Positions 1 to 33,963 of a stretch of 64,000 nucleotides of DNA are shown in pieces. How positions within the stretch are numbered: position 1 is the stretch's first letter; each line of letters starts with the position of its first letter. The notes under the pieces were generated by a model that saw only the letters and a program-made list of their open reading frames with translations, was not told the DNA's origin and made no database searches. Source of the stretch: Escherichia phage EK010; the sequence record NC_070981.1. One strand, 5' to 3'. A program made the position numbers and the translations under genes.

Positions 1-30
1 TAAGGATTGATATTAGACATGCATTATTTA

Positions 31-523
31 CCCATGTATATCTAACCAGTATTCTCCCACCCGTATTTCTCTTACTCATGTTAAGGAAGGATGAAAGGCT
101 AGCACTGTACAGGCATACTAATAGAAGACTATAACTAACCGGTATTAATAGTAAGAACATTAATGATAACCTATGTAAACTATACTGTTGCTAACACTTC
201 CCCACGTTTGAATGTAATAACTTATGTGATTATTTATGAGTGGATTATTGATGTATGTATGTTTAGACTGGTTATTGTTTACTTTAGTGATTATGTTAAT
301 TCTTTCTTTTAATCTTTTTCTTTTTCAGAGATTCTTTTTTCTTTTGATGAGTAGATTTTTGACTGGTAATTTATTACCGCATGGTCTGACCTGTTACCTG
401 TAACTAACTTACATTATATCCCACCCGTTTCCCCTTCCTCGTTAGGCTTCTTACCCATTGGCTAACCTATGCGGCACGTCTTACCCATCTATCTATCCCG
501 TTGGTCTGCTACCCGTTCTATTA
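31..523. repeat. Direct-repeat motifs in ORF-free left end (TTACCCAT x3, CCCACCCGT x2) flanking a T/C-rich tract
   Basis: Motif copies read at ~31-63 and ~419-500; pyrimidine run ~301-350; no ORF >=60 aa in 1-700. Confidence 0.5.
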
Positions 524-633
524 GTGTTATAAAGTAACATTCTGTCAGTAAGCTGTACCTCTGAGTAAGAAAGTTTAGTAAATTAAACTCCTTTTAGATT
601 CAATGAGTTATGAAATAGTTTGAAAATAAGTGG

Positions 634-661
634 TTGACATGTTTTTCCTTTAATATATAGT
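634..661 (+). promoter_or_regulatory. sigma70-type promoter (TTGACA -35, TATAGT-like -10) with upstream A-rich tract
   Basis: TTGACA at ~634-639, -10 ~656-661, 40 nt before ATG 702. Confidence 0.55.
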
Positions 662-701
662 TGCGACTGTAGTTTGTAGTTCACATCAACCGAAAGGATT
701 A

Positions 702-1571
702 ATGAAAATGTCAAAGTTAGCAATTAAATACTTGAATCAAGCAAATGATGTACTTTCTCCGTTAGGTCTTTCCGTTGGTGTGCCTTCTCAATGGATGGAT
801 AACCAGCAAGCTCGTACCAGCTTTAAAAACTCTGTCATTCTGGCTTGTCTTATCATAGATTCCGCTGCGAACGCCTTACAGTGTGAAGATGAGCAGTCAA
901 TGAAAGAGAATGGTTTTACAGATATGCAAGATGCTATCAACTGTTACATTCAGGCTAATTTAGATAGTTGGACTCAGAATGATTGGCCTGAATCTTGCCG
1001 CGATGTTAACGCAGTATTATCCCGCTTGTCTGCTATGGTTGAAGCTATTCAGAACAAGAAGAAGAAAGATAGTAAGCCTTCTATTGCAAGTAAGATTATG
1101 AAGTCTGTCAACCTTGCAAGTTATGCACTGGTTGCAGCTATCGGTGTTAGTGCTATCGCTACCAATGTGCAGGCAAAAGACTCTCTTTCTACAGGTCTGC
1201 AATCCTTTGTTAGCACGTTTAAGAATGCTCCTGATATGGCTTGCCGTGACGTTGGCAGTGATGGTAATGATTCATTTTGGAAGGTGCATTTTAACTCTGT
1301 AACCGTAAAAGATGTGCGTGTCACTCTTACCCCGTTAGGTGAGAAATCAGGCGTTCAGTCGGTCATTAATTTGAAACGTGCTGACAGTGATCACGACATG
1401 GTGACTTATTCTCTATATCAGAAGATTGAGAAAGAGAAATTACAGTTTGTAACTAATCTCGTTAGCTATGGTGATGTTAGTGAAACTGTACTCGCTACCA
1501 CTGCTTATAATGACGGTGTAGCAGTTTATACAACCTTTATTAACTTTGCTAATTGTGAGGCTATTCAGTGA
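702..1571 (+). CDS. hypothetical protein (289 aa)
   Basis: Track ORF; ATG start after promoter; no recognisable motif. Confidence 0.7.
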   Translation: MKMSKLAIKYLNQANDVLSPLGLSVGVPSQWMDNQQARTSFKNSVILACLIIDSAANALQCEDEQSMKENGFTDMQDAINCYIQANLDSWTQNDWPESCRDVNAVLSRLSAMVEAIQNKKKKDSKPSIASKIMKSVNLASYALVAAIGVSAIATNVQAKDSLSTGLQSFVSTFKNAPDMACRDVGSDGNDSFWKVHFNSVTVKDVRVTLTPLGEKSGVQSVINLKRADSDHDMVTYSLYQKIEKEKLQFVTNLVSYGDVSETVLATTAYNDGVAVYTTFINFANCEAIQ

Positions 1572-1816
1572 ACGAATCATTTGCAACCGTGATAAACGCC
1601 TATATGTGCATCCAGCACGGTGATTTGGTTATCAGTGGTAAATATGGCCTTGTACTGATTCCTATCCGTGCTTTGGCTTCCTTGTCTTCAGCACATGCAC
1701 GCATGACTATTGCCCGATTGTCCGGCCTTGATCCCATGACCGCTAACGAGTATCGTGATTTGCTGGTTAAGTCTGGTTTATCGCTGGAAGAACTGTTAAC
1801 CGTCGAGGATAATTAA
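1568..1816 (+). CDS. hypothetical protein (82 aa)
   Basis: Track ORF; start overlaps upstream stop (ATGA coupling). Confidence 0.55.
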   Translation: MNESFATVINAYMCIQHGDLVISGKYGLVLIPIRALASLSSAHARMTIARLSGLDPMTANEYRDLLVKSGLSLEELLTVEDN

Positions 1817-1818
1817 CG

Positions 1819-2091
1819 ATGGAAACTATTGCCATTATTGAAACACATAATTACGGCGTAGGCATTACACTGAATTATGATGCTATGGCTGACGTTGGTA
1901 ATTTGTTATTGATCACCCCTAGCGATATGAAAATTATTGCCTTCACTGGTATTATGCTTATTGGTGCGGATTATCTTGAGCTAGCCCAATTCTTTGCCCG
2001 TAATGGCCTACTATTGGACGTTGACGAGGTGCAAGCCATTTGTGAAACCTTTGATAACTATCTAGATAAGGTAGTAAGTGGTGAGCAATGA
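1819..2091 (+). CDS. hypothetical protein (90 aa)
   Basis: Track ORF tightly following previous gene. Confidence 0.55.
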   Translation: METIAIIETHNYGVGITLNYDAMADVGNLLLITPSDMKIIAFTGIMLIGADYLELAQFFARNGLLLDVDEVQAICETFDNYLDKVVSGEQ

Positions 2092-2105
2092 TTCATAAAT
2101 ATTTC

Positions 2106-2134
2106 TTGCATTGCCTGATTGCTTTCTGTATCAT
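2106..2134 (+). promoter_or_regulatory. possible sigma70-type promoter (TTGCAT-17-TATCAT)
   Basis: Hexamers read in intergenic region before 2191 gene. Confidence 0.35.
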
Positions 2135-2190
2135 GTTATTTACCTATGACATGATTTCTTATGTTGCACGTTCCTTGTAAGGGTTGGATT

Positions 2191-2517
2191 ATGAAAATTA
2201 AATTAGCTGTATGTGCTGCCTTGTTCGCTGTTTCTTCCGTGTCACATGCTGCCGTATTCAATGAGGCTAGCCTTGATGGTCTGCAATGCACCTATCTAAT
2301 GGAAAATTACGACACTGGCAAAAAGTCTAGCAAGGTAGTATTGATTGACCTGAATGATTATGATCATCGTGTCGTTGATGGCAAGCATGCAATGCTAGTC
2401 AATGAAACTACAGGCAAGCAAATTACTATTGATCACATGATGCGATCTAGCATGACGTTGTTCGATGAGTCGATGAACGAAATATCATCCGGTAACGGCA
2501 CTTGCACCAATCCGTAA
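2191..2517 (+). CDS. small exported protein with N-terminal signal peptide
   Basis: Internal ATG of track ORF 2161-2517 gives MKIKLAVCAALFAVSSVSHA signal-like N-terminus. Confidence 0.55.
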   Translation: MKIKLAVCAALFAVSSVSHAAVFNEASLDGLQCTYLMENYDTGKKSSKVVLIDLNDYDHRVVDGKHAMLVNETTGKQITIDHMMRSSMTLFDESMNEISSGNGTCTNP

Positions 2518-2536
2518 CCAATCCGTAAGACTCTCT

Positions 2537-2562
2537 AAGCGCCCTTTTGAGGCGCTTTTTTC
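2537..2562 (+). terminator. intrinsic terminator
   Basis: AAGCGCC/GGCGCTT stem, 7-nt loop, T-tract, directly after stop at 2517. Confidence 0.7.
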
Positions 2563-2766
2563 ATTTCTAAGGTGATTGTATGCCTTACTCCCTTTTAGCT
2601 CGTTGTGATGCGTTACAGGACGCTTATTATTGCTTTACAAGCCATTTCCTGTGATGTATCACGCGTGCACGTTCCTTTACCTCCTGATTTCTTTGTAGTT
2701 CCTATCCTCCCTAAAATAAATTCCTTTATAAAACAGTGAGATATAAAATAATTTGAAAAAAGGGTA

Positions 2767-2795
2767 TTGACAGGGTTTTCCTGTATAGTAATATG
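2767..2795 (+). promoter_or_regulatory. sigma70-type promoter P1 (TTGACA-16-TAATAT)
   Basis: Consensus -35 hexamer plus A-tract UP-like element upstream. Confidence 0.6.
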
Positions 2796-2922
2796 AATCC
2801 CGTAGTAAGCAGTAAGTAACAACAAGTAGTAAAAACTCCTCGATAGGTGATTAGCATCACGGTAAAAGGCTTCAACGGGGAGCGGTAGGAATACCGACAG
2901 TAAGACGCACAATGAAGTGCTA

Positions 2923-2936
2923 CGCTCTTTAAAAAT
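2923..2936 (+). promoter_or_regulatory. boxA-like antitermination motif CGCTCTTTAAAAAT
   Basis: Matches lambda nutL boxA (CGCTCTTAAAAA) and rrn boxA (GCTCTTTAACAA) consensus. Confidence 0.5.
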
Positions 2937-2970
2937 CAGGCTAGAAAGTGAAAATACTTTAAAAATAGTA

Positions 2971-2999
2971 TTGACACCGAAAACAGCCTGATTCATAAT
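2971..2999 (+). promoter_or_regulatory. sigma70-type promoter P2 (TTGACA-17-CATAAT)
   Basis: Near-consensus hexamers, A-rich upstream. Confidence 0.65.
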
Positions 3000-3032
3000 A
3001 AGCACTCAGTCAGCGATGACTTAAAATATCCC

Positions 3033-3046
3033 CGCTCTTTAAAAAT
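3033..3046 (+). promoter_or_regulatory. boxA-like motif CGCTCTTTAAAAAT
   Basis: ~30 nt downstream of P2 -10. Confidence 0.55.
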
Positions 3047-3095
3047 ATGATTTGTCTTACAGGTGGCGGCGACGTCATTACTATAAGGCGCTTAG

Positions 3096-3124
3096 TTGAC
3101 CACTAGAATTGATTCCTGATTCAT
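3096..3124 (+). promoter_or_regulatory. degenerate copy of the P2/P4 promoter module (TTGACC ... CATACG)
   Basis: Aligns with P2/P4 but -10 hexamer is degraded. Confidence 0.25.
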
Positions 3125-3302
3125 ACGTGAAACAGGCGGACGATGAGCAACAAAATAAGCCTCATTTGTTCGATACTTTCAAATGGTCGATGCTTGAAAG
3201 CGCACTAGATTCCTAAAAGACAAATCAGACTTATCATCTTGCCCTTTCGCATAGATTCACGCGAGATAAGGGAACGGAATAAAAGAAGACGATAAAAAAG
3301 AG

Positions 3303-3330
3303 TTGACAAGGTGAAACGTTCTGATAGAAT
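3303..3330 (+). promoter_or_regulatory. sigma70-type promoter P3 (TTGACA-16-TAGAAT, TG extended -10)
   Basis: Hexamers read directly; A-rich UP-like tract upstream. Confidence 0.65.
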
Positions 3331-3353
3331 GTTCACTAAGCAGTAAGAAACAC

Positions 3354-3367
3354 CGCTCTTTAAAAAT
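3354..3367 (+). promoter_or_regulatory. boxA-like motif CGCTCTTTAAAAAT
   Basis: ~20 nt downstream of P3 -10; followed by TAAGCG-CAAC-CGCTTA hairpin. Confidence 0.55.
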
Positions 3368-3469
3368 ATGAATCAGAAAGTTAAGCGCAACCGCTTACAA
3401 TCTTGTTAATCCAATGCGTGATTAACTGGTCATTCGAAAGAATAGACGAGAAAAAGATTTAAAAAGTGG

Positions 3470-3498
3470 TTGACACGCTAAACAGGATGATTCATAAT
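3470..3498 (+). promoter_or_regulatory. sigma70-type promoter P4 (TTGACA-17-CATAAT)
   Basis: Near-identical module to P2. Confidence 0.65.
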
Positions 3499-3587
3499 GA
3501 GCACTCACTAAGCAAATCACCGCGAAGTGAACAGCGTAACAACGGCTAACAGTTGCATAGTGTGAGAAAACACACTGATAGATTTAC

Positions 3588-3600
3588 CGCTCTTTAACAA
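3588..3600 (+). promoter_or_regulatory. boxA-like motif CGCTCTTTAACAA (rrn-type)
   Basis: 12/13 match to E. coli rrn boxA as I recall it; followed by TTTAAACA. Confidence 0.55.
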
Positions 3601-4414
3601 TTTAAACATTCTCCTATATCGGTTGAATATGCTAGATGATAATAACCATCGGATAGCATACCAGATAAAACGGTGTAAGATTCTCTAAACTATCAGAGTA
3701 AACAACCTTACAATCCCTTAACTGGAAACGTCACCACTGATAAACAGATTCATCGAGTGCACGCAAAGACTTAAGCTAATCGCCCACGGTTAAGGGTAGC
3801 GGCGGTCATCGCTAACAAGGCGCTACGGTGAAAGAAGTTAATCGGGGTAGGCAATTCCGACGAATACAAGCTCAATTGAGAGCGGCGGTGAGTGGTTAAA
3901 GAGTAGCAAATTGCTATTTAACAATAAGGTTTAGTGTGAACGTTTACGAAGTGAATGATTTGAGGCCACTATTGATGGCGTACATAATCAGTTTATGTAG
4001 TAAACCTGCTGAAAGATATAAAACGTCAATGTATCAGGCGGCTAATGACTCTTTCGCAATAACCTCCCGTAGTGGGCGATGGTTAGCGATTGAGAGTTAG
4101 TATAAAAGGATAGGCGGGAGCGAAAGCAAAGTAAACGATATTACCGACGGTTACAATAAAGTAACTAATTAGAGTCGGGCACACTGCCTTATTGTGATGA
4201 TTGATCATCGCTGGCAAATCGGCTTTGTTTATAGCGATTAGTTGAATCCACCAGATGAAACATCACGGCAAGTTAGGCGGCAAGGTTAACTCCTGATAAG
4301 ACCGCCTGATTTACCACTGGTTACTAATAGTTAGTGATTAGTGTTAAGTCATTGTGACTTGAATAGCTCATAGAGAGCGGCGCATAGTGCGTTTACAATT
4401 GAAAGGTGAATATC

Positions 4415-5317
4415 ATGGCTAAAGTTTTTAATCTGGTTAACGAATCCGGCTTTAATGCACTGGCTAACAACATTCGTAGCAACAACGCGGCAATCAAACA
4501 AGATGTTTCTAATTTCCTGTTAGGTCATTTGCAGCACTTCCGCACTAACGGTAAGAAACTTCATGTATTGCAGGCGGCGGTTGATTTTCTGTTAACTGAA
4601 CGTTATCGTGATTTAGATGTGATTGCAGTTGCAATCTCTTTCCTCACTCCTATCAAGTTTAACACCGATGCGGCAAATGGTCGTAAAAAGTGGATTAATC
4701 TGGAAGGTGAGGCGAAAGCGAAAGAAGATGCGAAAGAAGCGCAAATTAAGGCCAAAATGGAACAAAACCGCGCTCGCTGGTCAAACTCCTTTGAACGCTT
4801 TGCTAAAGGTGAAGACGTGCAGGTTGATAACCCAGCATTCTACAAAGGTTGCAACGACAACGTTCCGGTAGCAAACCAGATCAACCAGAAGGTTAACGAA
4901 AACTTTAATCAGGATATTTATGCACTGGTTGACCGTCTGGCTGCAATCCGTATTGAATCGGCATTACTAGCAGATGAACGCAATGGCGCATCTTCTGATA
5001 ACACTATCGCATTGAGTGAAGAAGTAGGCAAAGTTAAGAAAACTTTCGATTCACTCCTTAAGAAAGTAACCGCTTCAACTGTATCTATCAGCGATGACTA
5101 CCTGATTAATGCCTCGACTAAAGAGCTTGAATCTTTGGACTCATACGCCGATGAAATGGAAAAGGCGATCAACGAAATGACTGAAAAATTGTCTAACCTT
5201 CGCGGTCGTATCTCAAATGCTTCAACTATCAAAGCTAATGAGAAAGCTGCGCAGGAAGAAGAAGAAGTGTTGCGCAAAGCTGCCGAAATCATGGCGGCAC
5301 GCCAACAAGCTGCATAA
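4415..5317 (+). CDS. hypothetical early protein (~300 aa, charged, coiled-coil-like C-terminus)
   Basis: Track ORF 4406-5317; ATG 4415 preceded by AAAGG SD; first gene after promoter/boxA leader. Confidence 0.7.
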   Translation: MAKVFNLVNESGFNALANNIRSNNAAIKQDVSNFLLGHLQHFRTNGKKLHVLQAAVDFLLTERYRDLDVIAVAISFLTPIKFNTDAANGRKKWINLEGEAKAKEDAKEAQIKAKMEQNRARWSNSFERFAKGEDVQVDNPAFYKGCNDNVPVANQINQKVNENFNQDIYALVDRLAAIRIESALLADERNGASSDNTIALSEEVGKVKKTFDSLLKKVTASTVSISDDYLINASTKELESLDSYADEMEKAINEMTEKLSNLRGRISNASTIKANEKAAQEEEEVLRKAAEIMAARQQAA

Positions 5318-5338
5318 CCCATAATAAAGAACAAGTAA

Positions 5339-5371
5339 GGCGCTATTCGAAAAGGTAGCGCCTTTTCTTTT
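5339..5371 (+). terminator. intrinsic terminator
   Basis: GGCGCTA/TAGCGCC stem with T-tract after stop 5317. Confidence 0.7.
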
Positions 5372-5416
5372 ACTAGTGCATTGATTCAGTGTGCTAATCA
5401 AAGAAACTAAAAAGAG

Positions 5417-5650
5417 ATGATCACCATGCCAAAATTGAAAACAGAAGTTAAGATGTATCGTAATATCTTAAACAATATGACCTATCGTAAAACCGATAGA
5501 TATGGAATCGAATGCAAATGCACCCTTACCGGTGAATGGTATCCGTCACCGATTCAAGAACAAGCCTTGATTGATAACTCTGTCACTTATACTATCACGC
5601 AGGAAACTAAGTTAGGTCGTCTACTTCGTAAGCTAGGGCTTCGCAAATGA
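5417..5650 (+). CDS. hypothetical small protein (77 aa)
   Basis: Track ORF with AAAGAG SD-like sequence. Confidence 0.5.
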   Translation: MITMPKLKTEVKMYRNILNNMTYRKTDRYGIECKCTLTGEWYPSPIQEQALIDNSVTYTITQETKLGRLLRKLGLRK

Positions 5651-5868
5651 TTTTAACTCAATCCCACCTTTGCCCCATCTGTAAGAAAGCACGTGCTAAC
5701 AACAACCATCGCAAATGTAGCAGAATCTTACAACGTCGTCGTAATGATGCCGAGATGGATAAGATTCGAAAGAATCAGCATGAGCACGAAAGAAAACAAG
5801 CGGCGATTAGTGCATCTTCTGTAATGTATCGTCGTGTAAGAGCACTCCAATATAAAGAGGTTGTTTAA
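5647..5868 (+). CDS. hypothetical small basic protein with CxxC motif (73 aa)
   Basis: Track ORF; start overlaps upstream stop. Confidence 0.5.
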   Translation: MILTQSHLCPICKKARANNNHRKCSRILQRRRNDAEMDKIRKNQHEHERKQAAISASSVMYRRVRALQYKEVV

Positions 5869-6078
5869 ATGACTAGTTTAAGCACGTTAGAGAAGAAAGC
5901 GACTCGACTGTTAGGGCGTCGTGTCCGCTACCACTACCTGAATAAAGGTAAGGCATTAACCGGACGTATTACCACGGTATCCAGTTGTCGCGGTAAACTG
6001 ATCTCTGTAAGTGTTCTCTTTGATGGTGAAAAGGTAGCAATTACACGTAGTTGGAAGTCATTTAGTTTAATTGATTAA
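5869..6078 (+). CDS. hypothetical small protein (69 aa)
   Basis: Track ORF adjacent to previous gene. Confidence 0.5.
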   Translation: MTSLSTLEKKATRLLGRRVRYHYLNKGKALTGRITTVSSCRGKLISVSVLFDGEKVAITRSWKSFSLID

Positions 6079-6148
6079 GTTATTTGGTTAAGCCTTGCTG
6101 TGTGGTAAGGCTTGCACGATATAATTTATCAGCGAAAGGAATAAAGCA

Positions 6149-6592
6149 ATGGCTAAATCTAAAATCAGCATGAAAGGCGGACGAGTGTTCTCTATGAGTG
6201 AGCTGGAAAAAGAAAAGCCAGCCGCTGTTAACCATATTAGCAAACGTAGCCTTAAACGCAGGGCTATGAAACAGGCCGCTCAAGAACATAAAGAATCTCC
6301 TGTACCAAAGGTACTAGGTCGCCGTGTTCATCGTGCTGATGCGCTTCTTCTTGCTGATCACAAGCGTTCCTTGTTAACCAACGGGGCGGCGAAAACGGAA
6401 CAAGAAAAGCGTTTAGAAATCTTCTGCAACGGTCGCACTAAAGGTAAGCAGAAGAATAAAGGTAGCACTAAGCCGCCGAAAGCATTCCCTACTACTAGCC
6501 AATGTGCACCTGATGTTTTCTACGCTGATAGCAAACACAAGTGGGGAGTTGAAAAATATATTGACCCAATCAAAACAGCAAGAGTTAAGTAA
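6149..6592 (+). CDS. hypothetical basic protein (147 aa)
   Basis: Track ORF; Lys/Arg-rich. Confidence 0.6.
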   Translation: MAKSKISMKGGRVFSMSELEKEKPAAVNHISKRSLKRRAMKQAAQEHKESPVPKVLGRRVHRADALLLADHKRSLLTNGAAKTEQEKRLEIFCNGRTKGKQKNKGSTKPPKAFPTTSQCAPDVFYADSKHKWGVEKYIDPIKTARVK

Positions 6593-6622
6593 GCCCCTTC
6601 TGTACCAGTGGTCAACTACTAT

Positions 6623-6646
6623 GACGCTCTTCTTGAGCGTCTTTTT
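6623..6646 (+). terminator. intrinsic terminator T1
   Basis: GACGCTC/GAGCGTC stem, TTTTT. Confidence 0.75.
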
Positions 6647-6650
6647 GTCT

Positions 6651-6671
6651 GCCGCCTTTGTGCGGCTTTTT
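6651..6671 (+). terminator. intrinsic terminator T2
   Basis: GCCGC/GCGGC stem, TTTTT. Confidence 0.7.
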
Positions 6672-6752
6672 GCGTAGCTAGTGATGCCTAAAGGGAACTC
6701 CCTTTGTGAATCATTGGCATGGTTCAATTCCTATTGGATGGTCATTTGACCG

Positions 6753-6776
6753 GGCCTTTAACGAGGCCTCTTTTTT
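6753..6776 (+). terminator. intrinsic terminator T3
   Basis: GGCCT/AGGCC stem, TCTTTTTT. Confidence 0.55.
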
Positions 6777-6800
6777 AAGAGTCTTTACGAGGATTCTTAA

Positions 6801-6932
6801 ATGAGTGAGGTCATGTTCACTCTTTCAGGTCGCCCCGTCTTCGGATGGGGCTTTTTTATGCCCGTAAAACAGGGGGTAGTAAGTTCTGATAACGACAGCC
6901 CAGCTACTTTTGACATTGACTATTTATTATGA
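6801..6932 (+). CDS. possible short leader ORF (43 aa) spanning terminator T4
   Basis: ATG with GAGGA SD; overlaps start of 6910 gene in another frame; below track size cut-off. Confidence 0.2.
   Translation: MSEVMFTLSGRPVFGWGFFMPVKQGVVSSDNDSPATFDIDYLL
6832..6857 (+). terminator. intrinsic terminator T4
   Basis: GCCCC/GGGGC stem, TTTTTT. Confidence 0.7.
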
Positions 6933-7296
6933 GGCAGGGAATCAGCCAACCGCTTGCAAAGCATTAGTAGCGGATACCGTAATAAACAGAATGTCACAAC
7001 GAAAACTGACTGCCGAGCAGGTTATAAACCAACGAAACCAGTTCGAGTGGATACCCGTCCTATTAAAGAAGGAGAAACCTTTTAAGCGTTATGTAAAGCT
7101 GATTCGTGATGATAATCCTCTGATAAAGAAAGCAATCAGAGAGAGCGAGGAGCTTGCAAGACGTGCACTGAAGAAGGGTTATGTGCCTTTATATAGCGGT
7201 ACATACTTTCAGAGTAAGAGCGAAGGGGTGCCAAAGTGGTATACCAATCCAATGTATTGTGGTGATTTAGTGTTCAATAATAGTGCCCGTGACTGA
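6910..7296 (+). CDS. SleB/CwlJ-like cell-wall hydrolase domain protein
   Basis: IYYEAGNQ...CKALVADTVINR...QVINQRNQFEW motifs typical of Hydrolase_2 family; apparent TTG start. Confidence 0.55.
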   Translation: MTLTIYYEAGNQPTACKALVADTVINRMSQRKLTAEQVINQRNQFEWIPVLLKKEKPFKRYVKLIRDDNPLIKKAIRESEELARRALKKGYVPLYSGTYFQSKSEGVPKWYTNPMYCGDLVFNNSARD

Positions 7297-7497
7297 TTCA
7301 TAGGTGCCAAGATCGACAAACTAAATTCCCTTATAAATCACCTACTTATGATTTTCTCTGTAAAAAGTGGTAGTGATTCGGAACCAGAGGTAATGACTGT
7401 ATATAGACCTCTGAAAATTATTGATAGAAATTAAGTTTAGAAATAATAAATTCTAAATAATATTTCTTATAATATCTTACTTTAAGAGGATAAAGAT

Positions 7498-7803
7498 ATG
7501 ACTTTAGAGGTTTATAAGTTCCTTCTCGTACTCACTGTAACGATCTCTACTCTAGGATTTATTGCTTTAAGTAATAAATCAGCAAGCTGGAAGCGTCGTT
7601 ACGAGTTCCTTCTTAAGCAAGAGGAAGTCTTTAATGCTGATGTTCGTTCCAAACTGCTCAAGATGCAGGAGCAAATTGAAGCACGTAATGATCGTTTGGC
7701 TTCTTTGGGTTGGGAGATTAAACGTATTCAAGATCTCAACAAGCAACTCACTGAAGAAATTAAACGCCAGAATGAGGAAACAGAGGATGCGCTCAAAGGT
7801 TAA
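7498..7803 (+). CDS. membrane protein with N-terminal TM helix and coiled coil
   Basis: Track ORF; hydrophobic FLLVLTVTISTLGFIAL. Confidence 0.55.
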   Translation: MTLEVYKFLLVLTVTISTLGFIALSNKSASWKRRYEFLLKQEEVFNADVRSKLLKMQEQIEARNDRLASLGWEIKRIQDLNKQLTEEIKRQNEETEDALKG

Positions 7804-7963
7804 GTTTACCACTGGTAACACTGTTCGCCTTGTTGGCGGTACTCAAACAGGTGTTATTCGTCGGAGAACAACGATTGATGGTGTTCTCTGTTATCTTGTT
7901 CAGTGGAATGGTGAATCTTCTCCTTCCTTCGAACGTCGTACTGATTTGGTGTTAATCAAATGA
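7787..7963 (+). CDS. hypothetical small protein
   Basis: Internal ATG of track ORF 7634-7963 with GAGGAAACAGAGG SD. Confidence 0.4.
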   Translation: MRSKVKFTTGNTVRLVGGTQTGVIRRRTTIDGVLCYLVQWNGESSPSFERRTDLVLIK

Positions 7964-8190
7964 AAATTAATCTCTTCTCTGTAGTTGTTACCAAAAAGCT
8001 CAGTGAGTTACGTCCTGGCGATGTGTTCCGTTTACCAACTAACTCTGAAAATGTCTACCTAAAGACAGACACTAGACTTAACGATATGCATCGTGTGGTT
8101 GGTCTTAGTCAGGGGACACTGTTCCAATTACAGGAAGACCATGAAGTTATCCCTGTACCTGATGTTCAAGTAACTCATATCGGTGGTTAA
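7960..8190 (+). CDS. small protein, paralog family A (LRPGDxF ... EDxEVxPVP)
   Basis: Track ORF; shares motifs with 13142-13390, 9245-9496, 11500-11754. Confidence 0.55.
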   Translation: MKINLFSVVVTKKLSELRPGDVFRLPTNSENVYLKTDTRLNDMHRVVGLSQGTLFQLQEDHEVIPVPDVQVTHIGG

Positions 8191-8499
8191 ATGATAAATC
8201 TTAATATCCGTAGAGGTTTTTACCCTAAAGTCTCTTTCCGTGCTCAACTGGAGCAGCTTCCTGGTGTAACTTTCTTAGAGTTTACCTACAGCTGCGGTCG
8301 AGACAATCCCGGTTTCACTGTCACAATTGAATCTGGTTGGTTTAATATGACCATCATGCCAGAAGATGTTAACAATGCACTCCGTGGTATTAAGTCCGGC
8401 GGCCTAAACCTTTTAGCTCCCAAGGTGGGTGATGAACTTCTCACTGTGATTCGTAATGGTGTGGATAAAACAGCTAAGATGGTTGAAGCTCTTAAGTAA
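8191..8499 (+). CDS. hypothetical protein (102 aa)
   Basis: Track ORF. Confidence 0.55.
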   Translation: MINLNIRRGFYPKVSFRAQLEQLPGVTFLEFTYSCGRDNPGFTVTIESGWFNMTIMPEDVNNALRGIKSGGLNLLAPKVGDELLTVIRNGVDKTAKMVEALK

Positions 8500-8507
8500 C
8501 ATCGACT

Positions 8508-8580
8508 TATAGCCCTTGTGTTTATCAGAGGGCTATGTGAGGGTGTTCCTCAATTAACTATAATCTCAACGCCATATGGC
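8508..8580 (+). repeat. conserved intergenic hairpin element, copy 1 (TATAGCCCTTGTG..TATCAGAGGGCTATGTGAG ... CTCAA.TAAC)
   Basis: About 32/34 identical to copy at 13395; 8-bp inverted repeat ATAGCCCT/AGGGCTAT. Confidence 0.6.
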
Positions 8581-8728
8581 TCACCGCTAGGGCGAGACTT
8601 GTCTCAAACATCCGGTGATAGACTAAAACCTGTTAATTTTCGAACAGCTTTCCGATATGTAGGGGTATGTATCGGTTTGGGATAGAGAACAATCTAGGGG
8701 TAGAGAGTTCTCGACAGTTAGTACAAGC

Positions 8729-8762
8729 GGAAGCCTTAACGTGTAGGGCTTCCCTTTATATT
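8729..8762 (+). terminator. intrinsic terminator
   Basis: GGAAGCC/GGCTTCC stem followed by CTTTATATT. Confidence 0.45.
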
Positions 8763-8801
8763 AACTGGCAATCCTGCCTTCACCAACAAAGAGAGAACGA
8801 T

Positions 8802-8942
8802 ATGAAGAAGACAACCAAACGTATGAACCGTCCTGAGCGTATGGAAGCAGTGGCAAATGGTGCTCTGAAGATTGAGTCTGCCATGCTTCGTCTGACAACT
8901 AACATCCGTAAGCGTCAAGGTGATTGGTTCTACGGTGGATAA
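8802..8942 (+). CDS. hypothetical small protein (46 aa)
   Basis: ATG with AAGAGAGAA SD after terminator; track ORF 8667-8942 would span the terminator. Confidence 0.4.
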   Translation: MKKTTKRMNRPERMEAVANGALKIESAMLRLTTNIRKRQGDWFYGG

Positions 8943-9025
8943 TTAATAATGGGCTGCCCTTAGGGGTGGCCTTTGTTGTTTTAATTAAGGGACAACTCTT
9001 ACTTAAACTAACAAGAGAGGTTGTT

Positions 9026-10317: not shown

Positions 10318-10395
10318 GCACCCTTAGCTCAATTGGATTAGAGTAGCGACCTTCTAAGTCGTCGGTTACAGGTTCGAATCCTGTAGGGTGCACCA
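10318..10395 (+). tRNA. tRNA-Arg (anticodon UCU)
   Basis: Hand-folded cloverleaf: 7-bp acceptor stem GCACCCT/AGGGTGC, anticodon loop CUUCUAA, T-arm ACAGG-TTCGAAT-CCTGT, encoded CCA. Confidence 0.85.
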
Positions 10396-33954: not shown

Positions 33955-33963
33955 TAATGTATA
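33955..33963 (+). promoter_or_regulatory. TAATGTATA motif, candidate phage-sigma promoter element
   Basis: Exact 9-mer 33 nt upstream of ATG 33996. Confidence 0.4.

Follow-up and report, generated by a model that had tools for sequence, protein, structure and literature searches.

A host-type promoter and boxA cluster ahead of a conserved structured leader RNA in Escherichia phage EK010

Introduction

In the ribosomal RNA (rRNA) operons (rrn) of Escherichia coli, the boxA element is accompanied by boxB, a dispensable hairpin, and by boxC, which supplies the 5' strand of the leader-trailer helix enclosing 16S rRNA. The 16S-23S spacer contains another boxA (PMC8632103, PMC10250234). According to a model given in these papers, boxA, with NusB bound to it, keeps this 5' strand tethered at the polymerase's RNA exit until the trailer has emerged (PMC8632103, PMC10250234). 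Here we describe a similarly organized locus in Escherichia phage EK010 (NC_070981.1), of which a stretch of 64,000 nucleotides (nt), referred to as the window, was analysed. The locus is a cluster of sigma-70-type promoters, each followed by a boxA element, and is located in a 1.9-kb spacer without annotated genes, between the gp128-125 operon and gene 124.

The consensus GYTCTTTAANA has been derived experimentally for boxA in gamma-proteobacteria (Baniulyte et al. 2017, PMC5725501). In the host, boxA also shields the long untranslated transcripts of clustered regularly interspaced short palindromic repeat (CRISPR) arrays from Rho (PMC7665894), and the boxA Nus factors, acting without lambda N, are documented to counter Rho-dependent termination (PMC5725501, PMC10250234). 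Sigma-70 promoters have been reported in the corresponding spacer of phages phiEco32 and SU10 (PMC4281155), and the promoters as such are thus already known. In the literature searched, boxA was not found linked to phiEco32, although primary phiEco32 papers outside that search may mention it. An initial annotation of the window proposed that the phage borrows the rRNA antitermination machinery of the host, such that early transcripts read through terminators placed at 2537, 5339 and 6623-6857.

Results

Promoters and boxA elements

Phage EK010 is a phiEco32-like Kuravirus (Gordonclarkvirinae). The 2500-4500 region is 99.9% identical to that of Escherichia phage E20-1 and shows 88% identity to phiEco32 and SU10, in which it is found in the reverse-complement orientation. 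The coordinates of all features are given in Table 1.

The four near-consensus promoters listed in the initial annotation (P1 to P4) were all found, and match the sigma-70 consensus at 10 or 11 of 12 positions. All four feature a perfect TTGACA hexamer, carry the expected A-rich tract upstream of the -35 hexamer, and rank among the five best plus-strand sites in the interval 1-9000. The total number of promoter-like sites in this interval is not raised (16, vs 21.2 in shuffled sequences), and it is therefore the quality and the clustering of P1-P4 that stand out. GC-rich discriminators are not found downstream of the -10 hexamers. The duplications described earlier are also real. The P2 and P4 modules form a repeat (73% identity over 63 nt), TAAGCAGTAAG is common to the P1 and P3 transcripts, and a degenerate promoter copy is present around 3096.

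Each promoter is followed by a sense-strand boxA copy, located 24-129 nt downstream (129, 34, 24 and 90 nt from the end of the -10 hexamer for P1, P2, P3 and P4, respectively). As previously noted, three copies are of the AAAAAT form and one is of the AACAAT form. The motif CGCTCTTTAA occurs exactly four times in the 64 kb, always on the plus strand, at 2923, 3033, 3354 and 3588, whereas approximately 0.13 occurrences are expected (an estimate from base composition). Similarly, the gamma-proteobacterial consensus has four exact matches in the 64 kb, all in the sense orientation, vs 0.68 expected. A further element at 3913-3925 departs from the consensus at C4.

The phage copies correspond to the two boxA types of the host. 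The AAAAATC-type copy is identical to the boxA of the rrnB 16S-23S spacer at 14 of 14 nt (E. coli K-12 spacer, TTGCTCTTTAAAAATCtgg), and the AACAATTTA copy, corresponding to boxA4, is identical to the boxA of the rrnB leader at 16 of 16 nt (E. coli K-12 leader, cacTGCTCTTTAACAATTTAtcag). The AAAAAT form had been likened to lambda nutL. This likeness was not upheld, as the exact match is instead the host 16S-23S spacer boxA, TGCTCTTTAAAAATC, and nutL is a poorer match. In local folding, the mean probability of being unpaired ranges from 0.45 to 0.67 for the boxA copies, and boxA4 is unpaired in the covariation-supported structure described below.

Just past boxA1, the sequence TAGAAAGTGAAAA (2942-2954) is identical, at 13 of 13 nt, to the rrnB spacer sequence found directly after the 3' end of 16S rRNA. 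The match had E=0.019 in a small search (contig L024, 2044-2056), and the sequence is conserved in phage ECBP2. The identity may be due to chance, or may denote a second rrn-derived piece.

Table 1 Features of the promoter-boxA cluster, the leader RNA and the flanking sequences (all on the plus strand).
Feature	Coordinates	Strand	Remarks
Terminator of the gp128-125 operon	2537-2557	+	Annotated in SU10; 5' boundary of the promoter-boxA module
Promoter P1, TTGACA-16-TAATAT	2767-2794	+	10/12; A-tract upstream; present in phiEco32, SU10, TH38, Paul, EP335 and Bas87
Hairpin GCACAATGAAGTGC	2907-2920	+	Directly 5' of boxA1; minimum-free-energy fold
boxA1, GCTCTTTAAAAAT(C)	2924-2936	+	14/14 nt identical to the E. 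coli rrnB 16S-23S spacer boxA
Promoter P2, TTGACA-17-CATAAT	2971-2999	+	11/12; sigma-70 consensus match
Hairpin AGTCAGCGATGACT, GCGA loop	3008-3021	+	5' of boxA2; minimum-free-energy fold
boxA2, GCTCTTTAAAAAT	3034-3046	+	Consensus match
Degenerate promoter copy, TTGACC ... CATACG	3096-3127	+	Spacer too long; identified from sequence
Promoter P3, TTGACA-16-TAGAAT with TG	3303-3330	+	11/12; good -10 hexamer in a subset of relatives only
boxA3, GCTCTTTAAAAAT	3355-3367	+	Located at about -1055 from gene 124 in each of the 22 relatives, without shift
Promoter P4, TTGACA-17-CATAAT	3470-3498	+	11/12; both hexamers nearly invariant in relatives
Structured untranslated leader, whole	3540-4393	+	Conserved; 240 supported pairs, about 0.85 kb
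boxB-like hairpin, stem 3558-3564/3571-3577, loop AGAAAA	3558-3577	+	5' of boxA4; compensatory changes
boxA4, GCTCTTTAACAATTTA	3589-3604	+	16/16 nt identical to the rrnB leader boxA; in an invariant block of about 30 nt
Structured domain 1 (about 290 nt), closing helix 3601-3613/3888-3900	3601-3900	+	3 pairs with compensatory changes
boxA5-like element, GCTATTTAACAAT	3913-3925	+	A in place of C4; no variation among relatives; paired in the consensus structure
Structured domain 2 (about 275 nt), closing helix 3921-3938/4180-4195	3921-4195	+	Consensus helices 19-20
Gene 124 homologue, first gene of the unit	4406-5317	+	Probable start ATG 4415 after Shine-Dalgarno AAAGG
Intrinsic terminator after gene 124	5337-5364	+	Conserved in phiEco32; no strong promoter downstream
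Four tandem intrinsic terminators after the gene 120 homologue	6623-6851	+	Two conserved in phiEco32

Conservation of boxA in related phages

The corresponding spacers were collected from 21 further phages of three genera (Kuravirus, Suseptimavirus and Nieuwekanaalvirus). Every phage carries three to five exact consensus boxA copies plus an element of the 3913 type. The initial annotation had suggested an alignment of the leader across related phages, and in this comparison the boxA copies are conserved in all 22 genomes. Their positions are fixed at -1055, -822 and -498 from gene 124 and vary further upstream. Overall, the spacers of the 22 phages contain 89 boxA copies on the sense strand and none on the antisense strand, and no sense-strand copy occurs in 78 kb of flanking sequence of the relatives. 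Positions 1-9 and 11 of the element are invariant. Only position 10, corresponding to N in the consensus, varies (A in 51, C in 24, T in 13 and G in 1 of the copies).

The boxA elements are more constant than the promoters, and are kept even where the upstream promoter has changed. For instance, a good P3 -10 hexamer (P3 spans columns 38-66 of alignment A1, see below) is found only in the window and in phages SU7, NC-B and 101114BS3, with a variant form in Bas93. Most relatives keep only the -35 hexamer of P3, yet the downstream boxA3 is invariant in all 22 phages. In ECBP2, a different and weaker promoter precedes the first boxA.

Because the motif matches the consensus exactly, is identical to the rrnB elements including their flanks, occurs only in the sense orientation, and is invariant in the 22 phages except at the N position, its assignment as a bona fide rrn-type boxA is, at the level of sequence, strongly supported.

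A conserved structured leader RNA

The spacer downstream of P4 encodes a large structured RNA (3540-4393), which is supported by covariation, has no Rfam family, and was not part of the initial annotation. A sequence-only MAFFT alignment of the 1.1 kb preceding gene 124 (alignment A1) yielded an RNAalifold consensus fold of 277 pairs, 70 of which show compensatory changes. Restricting the fold to the part transcribed after P4, and dropping invariant long-range pairs, left 240 pairs, in which 99.1% of the cells are standard pairs. Two-sided changes are found in 67 of these 240 pairs, vs 29.3±2.8 in shuffled alignments (none of 500 reached 67), and controls in which the 3' partners were slid by 1-3 columns gave 4-11 compensatory pairs.

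The order of the elements around boxA4 matches the nut-like layout of the rrn leader. A hairpin (3558-3577) is followed by boxA (3589-3601) and then by a long-range helix (3601-3613/3888-3900), and both the hairpin and the helix covary. In the hairpin, individual pairs occur as UA in 13, CG in 7 and AU in 2 phages, as GC in 16 and AU in 5, and as AU in 19 and GC in 3, while the loop is conserved as AGAAAR. The helix closing domain 1 starts at the 3' edge of boxA4, and the helix closing domain 2 starts inside the boxA5-like element, the 5' half of which is overlapped by a small hairpin. Additional hairpins extend up to the ribosome-binding site of gene 124. The compensatory base-pair changes around boxA indicate that selection acts at the RNA level.

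An alternative inverted repeat (I5), in which boxA4 would pair with 3895-3903 and be sequestered, was discarded, as it features a C-A or C-C mismatch in 14 of 22 phages. The closing helix of domain 1 is shifted relative to I5 and shows compensatory changes. RNAalifold also pairs ATTTACC (3582-3588), just 5' of boxA4, with GGTGAAT (4405-4411), located 820 nt downstream in the Shine-Dalgarno/start region of gene 124. Since all of these positions are invariant and covariation is uninformative, this pairing was left out of the structure. As modelled, it could link boxA occupancy to the translation of gene 124.

A coding function of the leader was rejected, as the relatives share no plus-strand open reading frame (ORF) of at least 30 amino acids, and 12 of the 22 phages have none at all. 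In five of seven comparisons, conservation of the leader equals or exceeds that of the coding sequence of gene 124. In some GenBank records (MZ234015 and MZ234028), the spacer is filled with six to nine tiny ORFs on both strands, annotated as hypothetical proteins. These ORFs overlap covariation-supported helices and are not conserved as ORFs.

When the whole window was searched against Rfam 15 at gathering thresholds, only a transfer RNA (tRNA)-Arg at 10318 passed. At permissive E-values, the best hit in 2500-4450 had E=0.087 and belonged to eukaryotic miRNA noise, with no family for the leader. The spacer had no match in 5,426 E. coli genomes searched in distant mode, and its RNA is therefore not derived from the host or from a prophage.

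Flanking genes and terminators

The upstream gp128-125 operon has its own promoter at 634, which is not associated with boxA, and ends at terminator 2537. Terminators had been claimed at 2537, 5339 and 6623-6857, and were found at 2537, 5337 and 6623-6851, the latter being four in tandem. Terminator 2537 cannot be a target of read-through, as had been supposed, because it lies upstream of all boxA copies and the promoter of its operon is without boxA. The tandem terminators occupy a gap of 320 nt, at which phiEco32 has an extra gene (119).

Searches of ten neighbouring proteins against Pfam and PHROGs revealed no function, and no N-like or Q-like factor. Small, very basic proteins (isoelectric point, pI, 9.7-10.8) are encoded throughout 5417-6592, directly past the first terminator. 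One of them, a protein of 73 amino acids (5647-5868, pI 10.7), carries a CPIC...RILQRRRNDAEMDKIRKNQ pattern. These basic proteins, for which no family match was found, are candidate RNA-binding or antitermination cofactors. The 118-residue product of 2161-2517 is annotated as a terminase in relatives (phrog_13168). This label looks spurious because no Pfam domain is found in the protein, which carries a signal peptide of the Sec type, MKIKLAVCAALFAVSSVSHA.

In the near-identical record OP293233, position 1 of the window corresponds to a site roughly 88 nt short of the end, which places the promoter-boxA unit 2.7-3.5 kb from the genome end. On this strand, the first exact promoter motif of the type recognized by the phage sigma factor gp36 is located at 33955, about 30 kb downstream.

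boxA elements in other phages

Phage T7 carries GCTCTTTAACAAT at 813, between promoter A3 (750) and gene 0.3 (925). Since T7 has no protein of the lambda N type, any action of its boxA would be exerted through host factors alone. In the T5-like Proteus phage Stubb (MH830339; 4800-5800 of contig L104, minus strand), four tandem promoter-boxA modules are present in the pre-early region of the terminal repeat, near the A2 gene, and alternate between the AAAAATC (spacer) and AACAAT (leader) types. In T5 itself, a single copy, GCTCTTTAAAA, is present (pre-early strand, 4988).

The 16-mer shared with the rrn leader was also searched for by exact matching in IMG/VR, and was found in at least 120 contigs. 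Among the matches listed, which represent 74 distinct contexts, 31 contexts have the end of a sigma-70-like promoter 11-97 nt ahead of the motif, and nine have a tRNA gene starting within 600 nt downstream (within 16 nt in seven of the nine). In contigs L079, L086, L144, L056, L132, L145 and L092, GCTCTTTAACAATTTA is located 6-16 nt upstream of the first gene of a tRNA array. Among the matches listed, boxA elements preceding such arrays, which include up to 20 tRNAs, are often found 20-30 nt past a consensus sigma-70 promoter. The host boxA thus seems to be put to routine use by phages in front of untranslated RNA genes, and virulent enterobacterial phages appear to borrow this element recurrently, above all where untranslated RNA follows.

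Discussion

We favour, as somewhat probable, the explanation that the main early transcription unit begins with this spacer, which follows the layout of a host rRNA operon and serves as a device for Nus loading, Rho resistance and RNA folding. Host-type promoters, exact boxA copies and a conserved, folded, untranslated RNA occur together, and for this reason the phage probably borrows the rRNA transcription machinery of the host. Host sigma-70 RNA polymerase would initiate from strong promoters, two to four in tandem and each with an A-tract upstream, and within 18-125 nt of its start every transcript would carry one or more boxA copies identical to those of the host. NusB and S10 would bind boxA and, along with NusA, NusG and SuhB, convert the polymerase to an rrn-type antitermination/chaperone complex. 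Such a complex may cross 0.9-1.6 kb of untranslated RNA without Rho-dependent termination, elongate faster, and hold the 5' strand of each long-range helix at the RNA exit, allowing the two domains of about 280 nt to close correctly. The modified polymerase would then run on into gene 124 and further early genes. The mechanism as a whole is probable. Nus factors are likely to be recruited, and the most plausible purpose is to confer Rho resistance along the untranslated leader and to aid the folding of its RNA.

The earlier proposal that rRNA antitermination has been borrowed thus stands as far as the sequence and the conservation of an rrn-type boxA are concerned, but without terminator 2537 as a target and without the likeness to nutL. 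It had overlooked what seems a more obvious need for boxA, which heads a 0.9-1.6-kb untranslated and highly structured RNA, as it does at rrn operons and CRISPR arrays.

Several points weigh against the favoured explanation. rRNA has been reported to be intrinsically Rho-resistant (PMC5725501), and tight folding may by itself protect the leader RNA from Rho. The leader's C>G profile is uninformative, revealing only modest candidate Rho-loading stretches. The boxC sequence UCUGUGUGGG, expected 18-19 nt after boxA, is absent, and the phage reads TTAAACATTCTCC after boxA4. The boxA5-like element is both off-consensus at C4 and paired, and the second domain may have no functional boxA. In addition, phage 7-11, a distant relative, features no sense-strand boxA at its early end or early promoters, and the element is therefore not ancestral to the wider phiEco32/7-11 group.

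Intrinsic terminators constitute a different potential target. A boxA-modified polymerase, possibly helped by a phage N-like cofactor, might resist those at 5337, 6623-6851 and beyond, and a single promoter cluster would thus express about 30 kb of early genes. These terminators are strong hairpins of the sense strand that phiEco32 shares and that are not followed by strong promoters, which makes a real case for a processivity device, and the next exact gp36-type motif on the strand occurs only at 33955. GNRA-type hairpins adjoin several boxA copies, small basic proteins such as that at 5647-5868 (pI 10.7) are encoded shortly downstream, and rrn complexes reposition NusA, which then no longer stabilises hairpins (PMC8632103), a property that would favour read-through. 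However, boxA-mediated suppression of intrinsic terminators has been described as dependent on lambda N (PMC5725501, PMC10250234), so that read-through of 5337 and 6623-6851 is an extrapolation. No N-like family was found among the neighbouring proteins in Pfam and PHROGs, the hairpin-boxA order is the reverse of that in lambda nut, and terminator 2537, formerly counted among the targets, precedes every boxA. We consider this reading unlikely. A still smaller probability attaches to a role of the early RNA as a Nus-factor decoy, in which its four to seven boxA copies would titrate NusB, S10 and SuhB away from the seven host rrn operons and impair ribosome synthesis. Transcripts from the strong tandem promoters do carry multiple boxA copies each, identical to both host types, and Friedman and colleagues reportedly observed in 1990 that boxA transcripts from multicopy plasmids compete for a host factor. 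Yet the copies are placed as a cis-acting element would be, at transcript starts and beside long-range helices, and the conserved structured RNA of 0.85 kb downstream would be superfluous for a decoy. Moreover, phiEco32 already shuts off sigma-70 transcription via gp79 (PMC12276001).

The structured leader is not explained by a function in genome entry, which we regard as quite improbable, and in which host polymerase working at end-proximal strong promoters would pull in the DNA while boxA keeps the complexes fast and Rho-proof on untranslated DNA. Entry of the T7 genome is driven by transcription. The same layout of tandem A1-A3 promoters followed by boxA is found in T7, Stubb has its promoter-boxA modules in the terminal repeat that enters first, and the EK010 unit is similarly close to the genome end (2.7-3.5 kb). 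Both the decoy and the entry functions are compatible with the explanation that we favour. The weakest alternative is a DNA-level element, with the repeated 13-mers either bound as iterons by a replication or regulatory protein or belonging to upstream promoter elements. They are direct repeats in a long non-coding region, and in several phages boxA lies 47-49 nt upstream of the next -35 hexamer. In the window, however, the distance from boxA to the next promoter is not constant (47, 116 and 270 nt, with no promoter after boxA4), all repeats face the sense direction and coincide exactly with a host RNA signal, flanks included, and the surrounding sequence evolves by compensatory base-pair changes, all of which renders this reading most improbable.

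A bolder version of the favoured explanation, in which the RNA itself is the real product, is rather unlikely, if less so than the alternatives weighed above. The unit would be a miniature mimic of an rRNA operon, producing a two-domain transcript of about 0.85 kb at very high level in the first minutes of infection. This RNA would be folded by the host rrn antitermination/chaperone complex, with boxA anchoring the delivery of leader-trailer-type helices, and would perhaps be cut out by RNase III in the manner of pre-rRNA. It would be more than a 5' untranslated region and represent a new class of large phage non-coding RNA, which might, for example, capture Nus factors, ribosome-assembly factors, RNases or a defence system. 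On this view, virulent phages in general would employ the promoter-boxA module to make untranslated RNAs.

If boxA works here as it does at rrn, the locus would offer the rrn antitermination/chaperone complex a substrate that is natural but not ribosomal, in a genome that is small and easily mutated. The model in which boxA anchors the 5' strand would become directly testable outside ribosome biogenesis, given two covariation-supported long-range helices beside boxA. It would also be explained how a single cluster of sigma-70 promoters serves an early region of up to about 30 kb in phiEco32-like phages. The conserved 0.85-kb structured RNA is either blank or filled with spurious small ORFs in current annotations. 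The recurrence of the module in T7, in T5-like phages and ahead of phage tRNA arrays suggests a general strategy, which is little documented in the searchable literature.

The locus shares many features with the rrn operons of E. coli. Tandem strong promoters have A-rich upstream regions, boxA matches exactly over 16 nt for the leader type and over 14 nt for the spacer type, a hairpin is located 5' of boxA, and the strand of a long-range helix directly 3' of it closes a structured untranslated domain, with a second boxA-like element placed between two domains. In contrast, the phage leader encodes neither rRNA nor tRNA, its domains span about 280 nt, and the boxC sequence is missing. The long-range helix starts 0-6 nt after boxA rather than after 18-19 nt, the promoters have no GC-rich discriminator after the -10 hexamer, and the unit, which includes four to seven boxA copies, continues into protein-coding early genes.

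As in host CRISPR arrays and other chromosomal boxA loci (Baniulyte et al. 2017, PMC5725501; PMC7665894), a GYTCTTTAANA boxA heads a long untranslated transcript. Unlike those loci, which have a single boxA, the EK010 locus belongs to a virulent phage, and its boxA is multicopy and tied to a structured RNA. Similarity to lambda nut is limited to the presence of the host NusB/S10 recognition sequence at the start of early phage transcripts that must pass terminators. The lambda boxA departs from the rrn sequence (CGCTCTTA...), whereas the EK010 copies are rrn-identical. In EK010, conserved hairpins precede boxA, and the hairpin following boxA3 has a non-conserved loop. A lambda-type arrangement, in which boxA is followed by a boxB with a conserved GAAAA or GAAGA loop and an N protein with an arginine-rich motif is encoded, was not found, and an N-like protein is not apparent among the ten neighbouring proteins in Pfam and PHROGs.

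Stubb represents a second, unrelated phage group with the same promoter-boxA architecture. The closest known phage arrangement is that of T7, a virulent coliphage that also features tandem strong sigma-70 promoters (A1, A2 and A3) near the genome end and an rrn-type boxA in their common leader. T7, however, has one boxA for three promoters and a leader of about 110 nt to gene 0.3, whereas in EK010 each promoter has its own boxA and the 0.85-kb structured leader follows. The EK010 locus is thus distinguished, from both T7 and host boxA loci, by one boxA per promoter, the use of both host variants, and a new structured leader with rRNA-like closing helices.

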